Shown here in pieces: positions 38,113 through 42,294 of a stretch of DNA of 64,000 nucleotides (position 1 is the stretch's first letter; each line of letters begins with the position of its first letter). The stretch lies in the NCBI GenBank assembly GCA_963665325.3, contig CAXXWS020000003.1:96001-160000 (forward strand). Reading direction: 5' to 3'. The translations under genes and the position numbers were made by a program. Origin of the DNA: Alphaproteobacteria bacterium. Its GTDB lineage: Bacteria > Pseudomonadota > Alphaproteobacteria > Bin95. The notes below the pieces were generated by a model that did not search any database, was not told where the DNA came from, and saw only the letters and a program-made list of their open reading frames with translations.

Positions 38113-38288
38113 CGCGACGGCGAAAGAACGGTATCCGACAGGCCCGGGCCGGTATGAGAGCCCCGCCGACTCTGTCGCCGCCCCGCCCCTGAGCCGAGGC
38201 CATCCACGGGCCCGCAAGCCGGCCACTGGCTGCGCTTCACGGCAGTCTATACTGTGGCGAGGTCACAGGTTCGAAACCCGATCACGAC

Positions 38289-38849
38289 ATGCGGGCGACC
38301 GGCAGCATGAAGCCAAGACCCCGAGCTATCATCCGGCGGCATATTCTCGCGCTTGCTGCGCTTGCAATCGCGATACTGTTCTTCGCCTACGACATTGTCG
38401 CGGACTGGTTGTACGAAGACGAATACGGGACCTTTCACTTTCTTGTCGAACTCGTCGTGTTTGTCGGCGTATCCATGGCGCTCATTTTCGGCCTCAGGGA
38501 CCTGCGCCGATTGCGCGTTCGGTTGAACCGCGAGGAGCACCGGAACAGGCTGTTCTCCACGGCGCTCGCGGAAAGCATCGACGAGCAGTTGGATGAATGG
38601 CGGATGACCCGGAGCGAAAAAGACGTCGCCTGGTTCATTATCAAGGGGTACCGCTTTGCCGAGATCGCCAGGATCCGCGGAGTCAAGGAAAGCACAGCGC
38701 GGTTGCAGGCCACTTCTCTCTATGCGAAGGCCGACGTAAACGGGCGGGCGGAATTCGTTGCCGAAATCATTCAGCCGCTGCTGATGTCCATTCCGAGCGA
38801 CTCCTCACCTCGCGACAGCGAAGCCGGCGGCAGGACGAATCCACCTTGA
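38289..38849 (+). CDS. Membrane-anchored LuxR-type HTH regulator
   Basis: Two hydrophobic helices, then WRMTRSEKDVAWFIIKG..FAEIARIRGVKESTARLQATSLYAKA...RAEFV; alternative start at 38307. Confidence 0.85.
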   Translation: MRATGSMKPRPRAIIRRHILALAALAIAILFFAYDIVADWLYEDEYGTFHFLVELVVFVGVSMALIFGLRDLRRLRVRLNREEHRNRLFSTALAESIDEQLDEWRMTRSEKDVAWFIIKGYRFAEIARIRGVKESTARLQATSLYAKADVNGRAEFVAEIIQPLLMSIPSDSSPRDSEAGGRTNPP

Positions 38850-40408
38850 AGCCGCGACAAGTTCCCGGTGGCGACACCTGGTTCTGCATTCGGCGAAACG
38901 GATCGGTCCGGCGCAAGGGTTGGATCGAGGGCGGCCCGCTGGCCGGGATACGCCGCATTGTCGGCGCGCGCTCCGATGAGGCAGTGGAATTGTGCATTGC
39001 CAGCGACTTCCGGCGCGTAGCGCACAAGCGTTTCGCACGCGCGTTCTATCCTCGCGCCTGCGGACTGGTCGGGATGGAGGTGGCTTTCCGCGGTGAGATT
39101 GTCCGCTTCGCGCCAACACACATGCTGGCTGCCAACCTTGGGTTCCGCCGCGCTCTGGAGAGATTCCTCGACGAGCGGGAGGCCAGCCGCGACGACTTCG
39201 CGAGAGAGGGCGCTCTCCGCGCCTTCCGCGCCGAGCAGTACCTGTTGCCCCCGGGAAACGGGCGCGGGCCTGTAGAGCTTTTTCGCGGCGGGACCCTGGT
39301 TGAAGCCGTATCGACCGGCGACACGGACTGCGCGGCGGACCTTGAAGACGGAATCGGGCAGTGGATGCTTCGCAACCTGTCCGCTGACGGAGCGCTGCCT
39401 TACAAATACTGGCCGAGCCGCGGCACGGAATCGCCTGCGGACAATGCTATTCGCCGCTTCCTGGCATCGTTGTCCCTCGCTCGTCTGGGCGAGTTCCGCC
39501 GCTCTGCGGAAATCCGCGAAGCCGCACGGCGAAACCTGCGCTTCAACCTGGCGCGGTATTTTCGGGCGATAGGCGGCGGTCGAGGAGCCATCGTGGAGCG
39601 CACCGGAGCGAAGCTCGGCGCCGCCGCGCTCGCCGGGCTGGCAATTATCGAAAATCCTGCGAGAGAAGAGTTTGCCGACGAACTGGCCATGCTGGCGGCA
39701 GGCATCGAGTCTCTTGCGGACGACGAGCATGGGTTCCGCACGTTCTTTTTCCCGGCCGAGCGCGATGGCGAGAATTGGAACTTCTATTCCGGGGAAGCAC
39801 TGCTGTTCTGGGCCGAGGCGGCGCGAAGAGGGCTTTCGATTGCGCCGAGCCTGGAGCGGTGCGCCTCAGCGTTCGAGCGGTGTCGCGAAAGGCACTATCG
39901 GAAACGGAATCCTGCTTTCGTGCCTTGGCACACCCAGGCTTGCGCGTCGTTGTTCGCCCAGACCGGGCGGCGCGAATTCGCGGAATTCGTGCTGGAGGCG
40001 AACGACTGGCTCCTGGCGATGCAGCAGTGGGACGGACTCGATCCCGACTTGCGCGGGAGGTTCTACAATCCGCGCCGTCCCGAATTCGGCCCGCCGCACG
40101 CGGCGTCCACCGGAGCGTATCTGGAAGGGCTGGCGGACGCAGCAGCGCTGGCCCGTGCGCTCGGCGAAACGCGGCGGGCTTCGAGCTACGAGCGGGCCAT
40201 TCGTCGTGGGCTGAGGTCCCTGCGGCAACTGCAATTTAGAGATTGGCGCGACATGTACTATGTCTCCAGGACACGCCGCGTTCTTGGCGCATTGCGGACA
40301 GAAGTTTACGACAACGCCGTGCGAGTAGACTCAGCGGCCCACGCCCTCCTGGCGGCGATCAAGATACTCAGACCAATGGAATTCGATAGCCGCCCTTCAG
40401 ACGTGTGA
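38846..40408 (+). CDS. Uncharacterised enzyme: AMMECR1-like N-terminal region plus alpha/alpha-toroid-like domain
   Basis: TTG start overlaps the LuxR stop (TTGA). Motifs GALPYKYWP, KLGAAALAGLA, NFYSGEAL, FVPWHTQA, GALRT...VRVDSAAHAL. Fold assignment is recalled resemblance, not a search result. Confidence 0.7.
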   Translation: MKPRQVPGGDTWFCIRRNGSVRRKGWIEGGPLAGIRRIVGARSDEAVELCIASDFRRVAHKRFARAFYPRACGLVGMEVAFRGEIVRFAPTHMLAANLGFRRALERFLDEREASRDDFAREGALRAFRAEQYLLPPGNGRGPVELFRGGTLVEAVSTGDTDCAADLEDGIGQWMLRNLSADGALPYKYWPSRGTESPADNAIRRFLASLSLARLGEFRRSAEIREAARRNLRFNLARYFRAIGGGRGAIVERTGAKLGAAALAGLAIIENPAREEFADELAMLAAGIESLADDEHGFRTFFFPAERDGENWNFYSGEALLFWAEAARRGLSIAPSLERCASAFERCRERHYRKRNPAFVPWHTQACASLFAQTGRREFAEFVLEANDWLLAMQQWDGLDPDLRGRFYNPRRPEFGPPHAASTGAYLEGLADAAALARALGETRRASSYERAIRRGLRSLRQLQFRDWRDMYYVSRTRRVLGALRTEVYDNAVRVDSAAHALLAAIKILRPMEFDSRPSDV

Positions 40409-41044
40409 CCGCGACGATGTTTCAGGGTGAGGGGGCAAGACGTGGAGCCCGCGGCCAGGGGCCGGGAGGACATCGAATATCAGATGTACACGGGGCTCGG
40501 AGGAAGGATTGTCGGCGAAGTGCCGAGCCTTGTTGTCGAATGCCCAGAGCTCTCCCTCATGCATCACGACAGTCTCGTCGCCGGCGGTAAGCGGACTTCC
40601 CTCTGCGCTCTTCAAGACCAGATGCAGCCGGTCCCGGACCCGGTAGTAAGCCCCGGCATCGACATGGGGGAAAACCCGGCATTGCGGCAACAGCGTCACC
40701 AGGGTCGCCCGCCCCAGCCCGGCTTCGAGCTCAGCGGCAACCCGCTCGCAGAACGCCAATGCGAGAGGAAGTTTCCCGGCTGCCGGTGTAAGCCGGCTCT
40801 CATGGACATCGTTGGCATTCCTTGCACCCGGCGGAAGCGGCTTTTTCGGCGCGCGGAGGAAGATGTTCCGGGTATGGCGTTGGCAACGAACCTTTCGCTG
40901 ACGACTCGTGTCCACCGACCACATTTCCGGCGCGGCATCCAATTCTCTCAACAACGGAACGATGTCCACGCATTCTGCGATCCGGGTGAAATGGGCCCGG
41001 CCGTCTGCAATTCCGGAGTTCGTCATCGTCTTTCTCCCCGACAT
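40397..41044 (-). CDS. Aspartyl/asparaginyl beta-hydroxylase-family 2OG-Fe(II) oxygenase
   Basis: HxD (FPHVDAG), RLHLVL, GELWAFDNKARH (distal His), PRVHLIFD (2OG-binding Arg); no signal peptide. Confidence 0.88.
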   Translation of the reverse strand: MSGRKTMTNSGIADGRAHFTRIAECVDIVPLLRELDAAPEMWSVDTSRQRKVRCQRHTRNIFLRAPKKPLPPGARNANDVHESRLTPAAGKLPLALAFCERVAAELEAGLGRATLVTLLPQCRVFPHVDAGAYYRVRDRLHLVLKSAEGSPLTAGDETVVMHEGELWAFDNKARHFADNPSSEPRVHLIFDVLPAPGRGLHVLPPHPETSSRSHV

Positions 41045-41050
41045 AAACCT

Positions 41051-41296
41051 TCAGGATCCGGCTGGAGTCGCGCCGCAGGCGCGGGCCTGTTCTCTCATTG
41101 AGGCGTAGTCTTTCAGCATCGCAACGATCGCCGAGTCCTCGGGCAGCCGTTCGATCTCGCTCGCGGCCCGCTCCCGGAAGTCTGCGGCATAAGCGACCAG
41201 GGACGGACAGGCACCTGTAGACCCGGTTTCAGAAGCTCCCGTCGCGCAGGCCGTCAACAAGACCGTCGCGGCCGCCAGACTGATTATTCGTCTCAT
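41051..41296 (-). CDS. Small lipoprotein (81 aa), o-spanin/Rz1-like
   Basis: [17 protein letters not shown] lipobox, CPSLVAY...[12 protein letters not shown]; its start lies inside the 3' end of the GD-repeat gene in another frame. Confidence 0.75.
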
Positions 41297-41981
41297 TGTT
41301 GCCGCCCTTGCTGCCGTCGCCATCTCCGTCACCATCGCCATCCCCGTCGCCATCGCCGTCGCCATCCCCATCCCCGTCACCGTCGCCATCGCCGTCTCCG
41401 TCTCCGTCGCCATCGCCGTCTCCGTCTCCGTCGCCATCGCCGTCTCCGTCTCCGTCGCCATCGCCGTCTCCGTCCCCGTCCCCATCGCCGTCTCCATCCC
41501 CGTCGCCGTCTCCATCCCCGTCGCCGTCTCCATCCCCGTCGCCATCGCCGTCCCCATCCCCGTCGCCGTCTCCGTCCCCATCCCCGTCGCCGTCCCCATC
41601 CCCGTCTCCGTCTCCGTCCCCGTCTCCGTCTCCGTCTCCGTCCCCGTCGCCGTCTCCGTCCCCATCCCCGTCGCCGTCCCCATCCCCGTCGCCGTCTCCG
41701 TCTCCATCGCCGTCGCCGTCTCCGTCCCCGTCGCCATCGCCATCGCCGTCTCCGTCCCCGTCGCCATCGCCATCGCCATCGCCGTCTCCGTCCCCGTCCC
41801 CGTCGCCATCGCCATCGCCGTTGGCGCGAGCTTCCTGGAAAATATGAGGTGGCGCTTTTCCACCCAGAATGTGGATTCCGTTGCTCATCGTCAGGACAAA
41901 CGTCACAAGGAGGCCGCTCAGAGCCAGAGCCAGTCGCCGCAGAAAAGTCGGTGTACGCCCGTGAACCTTCTTCGAATTCAT
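41229..41981 (-). CDS. Signal/TM-anchored poly(Gly-Asp) protein, 250 aa with (GD)84
   Basis: GGGAG RBS before ATG 41981; basic N-terminus, hydrophobic helix [18 protein letters not shown], then 84 GD pairs and a 28-aa tail. Codons vary only synonymously (GGN GAY). Confidence 0.85.
41316..41819 (-). repeat. Degenerate hexanucleotide repeat (GGNGAY)84
   Basis: 504 bp of RTCNCC units on the + strand. Confidence 0.97.
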
Positions 41982-42294
41982 GACGCCTGCTCCCGCGAAT
42001 CCATCGGGTTTCACGGAAGAGCGTCCCGCTATTCGAATGGCGGCGCCACAGCCCTTTGTTATAAGAGCTGCCACTTATAATGTTTGCTATATCCGGAAAG
42101 GAGACGCGGCAAGTCGCGTACGCTGGCGCGCTTGCAACCGCTACCTCATCCGACTCCCGAACGACGTCCCGGCCCTGGTCGAGCTTCCTGCCCAGACGAC
42201 GATGGACTGCACCCCGGCTCGCCGCTGGCGCGGCGTCCGGGGTGACTGTTGGGGACGTTTCGCTGGTCTCGGCTCAAAGAGATCGGATCGTGTT

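Follow-up and report, generated by a model that had tools for sequence, protein, structure and literature searches.

The window analyzed here, a 64,000-nucleotide stretch of an Alphaproteobacteria genome (contig CAXXWS020000003.1, positions 96,001 to 160,000), encodes on its minus strand a membrane-anchored protein with 84 uninterrupted Gly-Asp units (GD protein, 41229..41981, 250 amino acids) and, overlapping the 3' end of its gene, a small lipoprotein (41051..41296, 81 amino acids). This pair is probably a spanin-derived, non-lytic tether between inner and outer membrane, in which a host GD-stalk protein has been fused in frame to the remnant of a phage spanin. From the comparisons described below we infer that the locus descends from a two-component spanin and works like its docking half, while the lysis context and the helical fusogenic domain are lacking.

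The GD open reading frame (ORF) covers 41229..42074 on the minus strand, where a GTG start at 42074 would give a protein of 281 amino acids; the ATG at 41981 is the likely true start because the sequence M-[ND]-S-K is conserved there among the congeners. Following a basic N-terminus (K, K, H, R, R, R), a single hydrophobic segment was found, the 16-residue core of which lies at 41886..41933 (minus, from the translation). By the positive-inside rule, the protein would be oriented N-in/C-out in the inner membrane, and the predicted topology has the one N-terminal transmembrane (TM) segment of inner-membrane spanins (i-spanins). A putative cleavage site between ARA and N is located about 20 residues beyond the hydrophobic core; in the usual signal-peptide geometry a site so far past the core disfavours cleavage, which argues for an uncleaved anchor. 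This N-terminal anchor module is conserved among congeners and is also present in a homologue lacking the spanin tail, encoded at the metagenome locus L109 (57.5% identity over 40 amino acids). The anchor precedes the perfect (GD)84 repeat (41316..41819, minus), which is built from seven hexamer types with invariant positions 1, 2, 4 and 5: variation is confined to third codon positions, without a non-synonymous change across 168 codons. In a six-frame scan, it was the single run of at least five GD units in the whole 5.58-Mb genome. The feature is not due to chance, as seen from its being the sole run in the genome, the synonymous-only variation and the same architecture in six more genomes. 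The protein ends with a 28-residue tail (41232..41315, minus), and the last 13-20 residues of this tail are homologous to i-spanin tails. No PHROG match was obtained for the GD protein; a Pfam match to TrAA12 was rejected as a low-complexity match to the repeat.

The original prediction had described a membrane-anchored GD protein whose last roughly 22 codons overlap, in another frame, the start of a Cys-containing lipoprotein. This was borne out: 68 nt (41229..41296, minus), i.e., 22 codons and the stop, are dual-coding, such that the tail and the signal peptide and lipobox of the lipoprotein share bases. As in overlapped spanins, the gene of the outer-membrane partner (o-spanin) uses a different reading frame, with its start inside the terminal part of the i-spanin gene, and extends past it. 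The o-spanin-type lipoprotein (minus strand) possesses a signal peptide, a lipobox (LLTAC, with Cys17) and Ala at +2 instead of an inner-membrane retention residue, from which sorting to the outer membrane would be expected; additional cysteines are Cys30 and Cys74. Cys17 falls in the class conserved in at least 90% of sequences across 77 relatives, and the LPAM_1 profile scored 18.8 bits, slightly below the cut-off of 20. Nothing meaningful was found for the lipoprotein in NCBIfam, and it matched phrog_26778 at 6.4e-18, a PHROG labelled 'unknown function'. The AlphaFold2 (AF2) model of the mature lipoprotein, based on a 77-row alignment, is a helical hairpin (residues 38-49 and 56-75) with a mean predicted local distance difference test (pLDDT) value of 81.6, the blocks within 41-70 being at 96-97; a Foldseek comparison of this model with BFVD gave nothing below an E-value of 3.7.

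The relationship with phage lysis genes was analyzed via searches with the lipoprotein. In a tblastn search of 50,697 phage records six phages were matched, three of which were examined: in Rhodobacter phage RcRudolph an endolysin gene is followed by one or more small TM proteins and by a TM protein that ends with RLRDGSA and overlaps the lipoprotein start, and the same order was seen in Rhizobium phage RHph_I20 and Roseobacter phage CRP-212, where the last TM protein ends with ALRDGLF and RLRRDGL, respectively. A scan of GTDB with one genome per species yielded 105 lipoprotein relatives, 80 of which were kept: 76 have a classical short TM partner, three are GD-type and one is cut by a contig end. 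Upstream sequence of at least 900 nt is available for 68 classical loci, and 56 of these have an M15 peptidase gene in the same orientation at most 1.2 kb before the pair; the peptidase matches phrog_894, labelled 'endolysin', at 4e-27; the gene order at locus L037 is capsid, connector, head completion, DUF6127, M15 peptidase and then the spanin pair. TM partners of three relatives match phrog_1026 'Rz-like spanin' (loci L010, 6e-6, and L011, 4.2e-5, and phage CRP-212, 3.4e-6), and those of L009 and L011 match phrog_27122. Hence, the motif pair named in the original prediction, an LRDG-type ending followed by a lipoprotein, is real in three phages and in 76 of the 80 genomic loci, and the proposed inspection of homologues and their neighbourhoods did reveal an endolysin-like M15 peptidase upstream and TM partners ending with LRDGxF.

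The GD protein itself is connected to this family by its tail and by the register of the overlap. Comparison of seven GD-type tails with 15 classical partners by hhalign aligned them C-terminus to C-terminus over 20 columns (88.7%, E 2.6e-6), and the GD tail retains the L, L-R, G and terminal F common to the phage partners. Moreover, in 82 of 91 loci (a set in which L018 duplicates L007 and L001 is the window), among them all GD-type loci and two of the three phages, the stop codon of the partner begins 17 nt past the first base of the lipobox Cys codon; the third phage has +5, and eight loci escaped the pattern. Such a shared stop-to-lipobox register would hardly be expected unless the overlapped pairs had a common ancestor. 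Homology to recognised spanins is therefore indicated by the match of the lipoprotein to phrog_26778, by those of the relatives' partners to phrog_1026 and by the tail alignment, which supports the spanin architecture that had been suggested. The alphaproteobacterial pair made up of phrog_1026 or phrog_27122 and phrog_26778 shares with the GD locus a homologous lipoprotein (30-59% identity), the tail motif and the +17-nt register, whereas the classical partner is a protein of 74-96 amino acids with a short helical periplasmic domain encoded behind an endolysin gene, and the GD version has an unrelated anchor and a dipeptide repeat. Two origins had been put forward, namely replacement of the i-spanin coiled coil by (GD)84 or fusion of the GD gene onto a phage remnant: the latter fits better and the former less well, since a tail-less homologue exists (L109) and the anchor is unlike those of classical i-spanins.

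With regard to the classical pairs, the module composed of DUF6127, M15 peptidase, a TM protein of 85-91 amino acids and the overlapped lipoprotein was found to be nearly identical in very distant Alphaproteobacteria (L037, 2712-4231, and most of L020-L097, from Brucella, Paracoccus, Sphingomonas, Rhodovulum, Caenispirillum and others). In nearly all of them the TM protein contains ...RLAERLETSEKTNDVQRQMLDAAARRPRDRxDLADRLRDGRF. The structural genes upstream of the module differ, the L037-type capsid being present in just 4 of 56 loci, and the module looks like a widely exchanged lysis module.

The pair is kept by purifying selection as part of a cassette of five genes (38242..42095, both strands, 3.85 kb; 72-80% nucleotide identity in congeners by blastn and tblastn) across seven genomes. 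As compared to the window, dN/dS values were 0.19-0.47 for the non-overlapping part of the lipoprotein, 0.31-0.61 for the 50 residues of the GD protein before the repeat and 0.07-0.13 for a hydroxylase encoded next to the lipoprotein. The number of GD units in the seven genomes is 84, 70, 67, 24, 72, 72 and 83, and the repeat is near-perfect in all of them, the departures being one GN and, at locus L019, regular GGS or GSS insertions. Relatives from metagenomes with a 96%-identical hydroxylase have 89 and 90 units, one of them with GE or GG interruptions, and a locus with an 81%-identical hydroxylase has 152; unit numbers thus differ among close relatives (L105, 603-1166; L107, 1971-2504; L108, 1926-2837), which suggests ongoing expansion and contraction of the repeat. 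Such dynamics would also be seen if the locus were a functionless, decaying prophage remnant in which a hexanucleotide repeat had been expanded by slippage: hexamer arrays do expand in this way, higher-order periods of 18, 24 and 42 nt are visible within the array, the 84 units stand against 89 and 90 in loci with nearly the same hydroxylase, and the cassette is patchy in the genus. However, we consider decay very unlikely, as both frames are intact in seven genomes differing by 20-28% in nucleotides, the 168 codons have remained free of non-synonymous change despite seven hexamer types, dN/dS is below 1, and other phage genes are absent from the flanks and, by tblastn, from the window.

The synonymous-only variation of the repeat does not by itself distinguish between the strands, since an antisense frame reading (SP)n on the plus strand (41296..41847) shares third positions with the GD frame and fits equally well. 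That the repeat is truly read as this (SP)n frame or as a Thr/Ala/Met-rich frame, the GD protein being an artefact, is nevertheless scarcely credible: CCA would account for 34% of the Pro and TCT for 27% of the Ser codons as compared to 2% and 1% in flanking genes, and the (SP)n frame has no anchor, no conserved ends and only an inferred TTG start, whereas for the GD frame, anchor conservation and tail homology extend to all relatives. The GD frame is taken as the coding frame because the codon usage of the SP frame is aberrant and its ends are unconserved. Both the (SP)n frame and a Thr/Ala/Met/Glu-rich open frame on the minus strand (41051..41863) are by-products of the hexamer repeat that could mislead gene callers.

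Docking of the two proteins was addressed via complex prediction with the 40-residue tail and the mature lipoprotein. The score was 0.36, as compared to 0.00 for the best control, which gives weak support: 58 of 80 solved complexes passed the docking mark, as did 2 of 110 mismatched pairs, counts that hold only roughly here because analyst-made alignments were used. The runs agree in at least 79% of contacts, with a partner pLDDT of at least 58. In the tether proposed here, it is the C-terminal 13 residues of the GD protein that would dock on the lipoprotein hairpin.

The GD pair differs from functional lysis cassettes in its surroundings. In accordance with the statement of the original prediction that no endolysin or holin is nearby, none was found in the seven cassettes or their flanking genes, and tblastn with eight lysis and capsid proteins of related elements gave nothing in the 64-kb window. 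The genome itself contains no classical i-spanin partner and no PF08291 peptidase (other endolysin families, holins and gene transfer agent genes were not searched for). Furthermore, no helical or coiled-coil periplasmic domain is present: the periplasmic part consists of (GD)84 and the 28-residue tail. Overlapped two-component spanins, with lambda Rz/Rz1 as the prototype and a catalogue by Kongari et al. (2018; PMC6139136), have the same type-II inner-membrane protein whose gene overlaps that of an outer-membrane lipoprotein, and the C-terminal part of the first protein is thought to bind the second. In contrast, the GD locus is chromosomal, lies in a non-phage cassette without adjoining holin or endolysin genes and has (GD)84 in place of the helical domain, and it is predicted to be non-fusogenic.

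It could be argued that the pair is a still-working spanin that uses a hydrolase and a holin encoded elsewhere, e.g., in a prophage, a gene transfer agent or a module like the type 10 secretion system (T10SS), with the GD repeat as an extended flexible linker. According to the spanin survey, the linker of lambda Rz accommodates inserted Gly-Ser, and a coiled coil is not predicted for more than 120 of the i-spanins catalogued (PMC6139136); by analogy, the GD pair may have a residual lytic role. Moreover, in the Serratia T10SS ChiWXYZ, consisting of holin, hydrolase and the spanins ChiY/ChiZ, spanins act in host secretion (PMC13284979), and the GD locus resembles this system in that phage spanins were retained by a host. 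Still, a T10SS is defined by its holin and peptidoglycan hydrolase (PMC13284979), neither of which occurs in the GD cassette or its flanks; the entire helical periplasmic domain of the classical partner is gone, not merely a linker; and the pair travels with a hydroxylase, a putative toroid protein and a regulator. Together with the lack of endolysin and holin genes in the seven cassettes and their flanks and of a PF08291 peptidase in the genome, where other endolysin families and gene transfer agent genes were not searched for, this makes a working spanin quite improbable, and a non-lytic tether remains the preferred reading.

The enzymes that accompany the pair point to a possible modification of the stalk. 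The gene beginning 7 nt past the lipoprotein stop encodes an Fe(II)/2-oxoglutarate (2OG) oxygenase of the Asp/Asn beta-hydroxylase family (40397..41044, minus, 215 amino acids), and the genes for the GD protein, the lipoprotein and the hydroxylase are probably organized in one operon. PF05118 was matched at 5.1e-15, with a score of 56.1 as compared to the cut-off of 22.6, and the iron site HxD...H is intact: PHVD and the distal His align with those of L-proline cis-4-hydroxylase 4p7w (E 1.1e-3). Convergent with this gene, a protein of about 521 amino acids is encoded that belongs to no named family (38843..40408, plus, start codon uncertain), for which Pfam, NCBIfam and PADLOC gave no match. 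Judging from its model, it probably comprises an N-terminal alpha/beta domain and an alpha/alpha toroid: the AF2 model is poor (pLDDT 53.6), and the Foldseek hits to (alpha/alpha)6 carbohydrate-active folds, i.e., GH76, polysaccharide lyase and epimerase (best E 5.6e-3, TM-score at most 0.5), are, like the atlas rows for this protein, leads only. The ORF to which it belongs would encode 603 amino acids (38597..40408), the first ~80 codons of which (38597..38850) overlap the LuxR-type gene of the cassette in another frame and are probably non-coding; conservation starts near 38843-38880, where L019 has an ATG and the window has no evident one.

The original prediction did not mention the neighbouring hydroxylase or the fact that it is generally linked to (GD)n proteins. 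A metagenome scan with the hydroxylase alignment retrieved 28 loci (55-96% identity), and the 521-amino acid gene adjoins the hydroxylase gene in 27 of them. Upstream sequence of 1 kb or more is present at 21 loci, and 19 of these have an upstream ORF with at least six GD units in the same orientation. The spanin-type architecture, with tail and lipoprotein both kept, was recognized at L105/L107 and L108. The other architectures are a lipoprotein with (GD)75 and a B_lectin domain (38.8 bits, cut-off 32.4), a lipoprotein with (GD)39-102, poly-Asp and a TbpB_B_D-like barrel (22.8 bits, below the cut-off of 26), a lipoprotein ending in (GD)127-132, and a protein of 650 amino acids ending in (GD)24 and D18. 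Finally, L109/L110 encode an anchor homologous to that of the window with (GD)72+27, no spanin tail and no o-spanin, this TM-(GD)n gene being followed by a separate TbpB_B_D lipoprotein gene (9e-21). Since the enzyme pair adjoins (GD)n proteins of several architectures, these comparisons identify the GD stalk and the two enzymes as a module of its own, in which the hydroxylase belongs to the GD repeat and not to the spanin.

Several points weigh against a docking tether with an enzymatically modified stalk. The label of both phrog_26778 and phrog_27122 is 'unknown function' and the annotation of the phage genes is 'hypothetical', and the spanin identity of the family, classical or GD-type, rests on sequence comparison; no similarity between the N-terminal anchor and classical i-spanins was detected. 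The homology of the tail shows descent and does not prove a retained binding function: its end, DGLRDGSF-stop, is encoded by the same bases as the lipobox region of the lipoprotein, and the lipoprotein frame may force part of the tail conservation, and vice versa, rather than binding. At scores of up to 0.60, the docking mark was reached by only 7 of the 80 solved complexes and by both mismatches. The cassette is patchy, being present in 5 of 17 genomes of the genus and in 5 of 37 of the order, and the sixfold range of stalk lengths, 24-152 units, argues against a precise ruler. As for the enzymes, the nearest solved relative of the hydroxylase, 4p7w, acts on free L-proline, so that its substrate could be a free amino acid, and no signal peptide is apparent in the hydroxylase, although its putative target, the stalk, would reside in the periplasm. 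In addition, L117 and L118 have the enzyme pair and no (GD) ORF within 1.7-3.5 kb upstream, and the 28 loci include numerous near-duplicates that stem from related assemblies, leaving about eight or nine distinct architectures and not 19.

A rival reading is that the interaction between tail and lipoprotein has been lost. In that case, the GD protein would be a member of an enzyme-serviced (GD)n envelope family, functioning as an acidic polymer of the periplasm or the surface in cation binding or as a spacer, and the lipoprotein would either serve a separate purpose or persist only because the GD gene encloses its start. This would be in line with (GD)n proteins with quite different ends, including the tail-less one of L109, adjoining the same enzyme pair, with the dual coding of the lipobox, which partly explains the conservation of the tail, and with the weak complex score. 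However, the non-overlapping part of the lipoprotein is itself under purifying selection, with conserved Cys30, Cys74 and hairpin, both tail and lipoprotein are kept in seven genomes and three metagenome types (L105/L107, L108), and the tail has retained the residues typical of the phage partners. We therefore regard a loss of interaction as unlikely and prefer the tether.

For this tether the following mechanism can be proposed. A gene for a host-type anchor and (GD)n stalk would have been joined in frame to the ~20 final codons of an i-spanin gene from a phage, with retention of the o-spanin lipoprotein gene that overlaps these codons. The operon of GD gene, lipoprotein gene and hydroxylase gene would be expressed, perhaps under the control of the LuxR-type membrane regulator of the cassette. 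The Fe/2OG oxygenase would beta-hydroxylate the Asp of the D-G units in the cytoplasm: given an enzyme without visible signal peptide and a periplasmic stalk, the modification would have to precede export. The toroid enzyme would act on the same stalk. The GD protein would insert N-in/C-out in the inner membrane, the lipoprotein would be lipidated and sent to the outer membrane, and the GD tail would dock on the helical hairpin of the latter. In this way, the flexible, polyanionic (GD)84, with a contour length of about 60 nm, would thread the peptidoglycan as a slack acidic link between inner and outer membrane. Since stalk length varies sixfold, a slack tether or a cation-binding cable is suggested rather than a ruler, and the pair should neither fuse membranes nor lyse cells because the helical fusogenic domain and the endolysin are missing. 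The Asp-Gly sequence forms succinimide and isoaspartate more readily than any other, and beta-hydroxy-Asp is a good ligand of Ca2+ and Fe3+; plausible pay-offs of the hydroxylation would accordingly be the shielding of isomerisation-prone Asp-Gly bonds and tighter binding of divalent cations.

A more far-reaching proposal, which we put forward tentatively and regard as possible rather than probable, is that the locus belongs to an undescribed alphaproteobacterial stalk system: long ribosomal poly(Gly-Asp) in which every Asp is beta-hydroxylated by a dedicated Fe/2OG oxygenase, further processed by the toroid protein and holding either lectin- or TbpB-like heads or the spanin docking pair. Precedents for single parts of such a system exist. 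The Fe(II)/2OG oxygenase SmaO beta-hydroxylates both Asp of DGDG in a ribosomal peptide and needs the following Gly (PMC12186529), and in SmaO/SmaA, as at the GD locus, the oxygenase gene lies beside that of a ribosomal product with Asp-Gly units. SmaA is a short exported peptide with two modified Asp, and an HD-domain enzyme makes aminomalonate (PMC12186529), whereas the putative substrate here is a membrane protein with 84 units and the second enzyme is toroid-like and not of the HD type, the enzymes being compared by description. The closest functional analogy, not a membership, would be to the Ser-Asp stalks of staphylococcal ClfA and SdrC/D with their glycosyltransferases SdgA/SdgB: these are reported as wall-spanning stalks of X-Asp repeats served by dedicated modifying enzymes (PMC3794999; PMC8561734). 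The staphylococcal system differs in being Gram-positive, sortase-anchored, built of Ser-Asp and not Gly-Asp, and glycosylated on Ser. The GD protein lacks the features of the Sdr/Clf members of the microbial surface components recognizing adhesive matrix molecules (MSCRAMM), namely a score above cut-off, an A domain and an LPXTG anchor: the NCBIfam matches to Sdr/Clf (64-76 bits as compared to cut-offs of 999-2500) cover the dipeptide repeat only and are spurious.

If the proposal holds, a covalently continuous, cation-binding cable of poly(hydroxy-Asp) would span the peptidoglycan and connect inner and outer membrane, as the Gram-negative equivalent of the modified staphylococcal Ser-Asp stalks, and the pair would be the first case in which a spanin was exapted for a structural, connecting role instead of membrane fusion. 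To our knowledge, spanins are known only as fusogens in terminal lysis or secretion. Retention of a spanin docking pair in the absence of endolysin, holin and fusogenic helix, joined to a dipeptide-repeat stalk of the host and passed on together with modifying enzymes, would demonstrate that components of phage lysis can become plain connectors of the envelope; in the literature searched, no description of such a domesticated spanin, of bacterial (GD)n proteins or of a hydroxylase-toroid (GD)n module was found. Apart from the GD locus, the analysis puts a name to a widespread, hitherto unlabelled alphaproteobacterial spanin family (phrog_26778 and phrog_27122). The tight genetic link between hydroxylase and (GD)n provides a directly testable candidate for large-scale Asp hydroxylation of bacterial proteins, and the series of stalk lengths from 24 to 152 units would be a natural handle on how links between inner and outer membrane tolerate or set periplasmic width.

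The five genes of the cassette encode the membrane-anchored LuxR-type regulator, the ~521-amino acid protein, the hydroxylase, the lipoprotein and the GD protein, and all of them are present in the window, in G011, G008, G006 and G003 and, via the loci L019 and L025, in G061 and G062; at L019 the 521-amino acid gene is inverted. The LuxR/GerE-type regulator (38289..38849, plus) matched GerE at 0.028 and NF047608 at 2.4e-13, both below cut-off, and occurs in 7 of 7 cassettes and in 14 of 28 metagenome loci. PADLOC assigned none of the five cassette proteins to a family at E <= 0.01. Only 38242..42095 of the window is shared with the congeners, and the sequence outside is not. The flanks differ per genome and are metabolic and unrelated: the window has SecA, CobS/CobT and an AidB-like acyl-CoA dehydrogenase to one side of the cassette and, to the opposite side, enoyl-CoA hydratase, sarcosine oxidase and RecQ; further flanking genes are those for NAD synthase in G011 (L014), HpcH aldolase and a Mu-type transposase in G008 (L015), histidine kinase and histidinol dehydrogenase in G003 (L016), a luciferase-like oxygenase and hydantoinase B in G061 (L019), and dienelactone hydrolase and 2-hydroxyacid dehydrogenase in G062 (L025). 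The GC content at third codon positions (GC3) is about 0.70-0.74 in the cassette genes as compared to about 0.85 in flanking housekeeping genes, and the cassette sits on the 1.10-Mb contig C4 of a five-contig genome; low GC3 and genomic placement are consistent with horizontal acquisition. Neither an integrase nor clear terminal repeats were found at the cassette, the ends of which show a weak inverted repeat (28 nt, 71%), and a search for promoter-like sites gave none, while terminator-like sites were at chance level (5 as compared to 3.8 expected).

Sequencing runs were inspected for the locus as well. None of the RNA runs had more than 0.08 of the words, and none of the contigs from four sequencing runs spans 41312..41831, which makes them uninformative on repeat-length variation or expression. 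At 40397..41311, the runs X1, X3, X5 and X6 contain an exact copy and a second copy differing at 64-68 of 466 positions (52 of 401 in X6); at 41278, this second copy has a loose end that resembles the G011-type tail region; these runs may contain two strains or two species.

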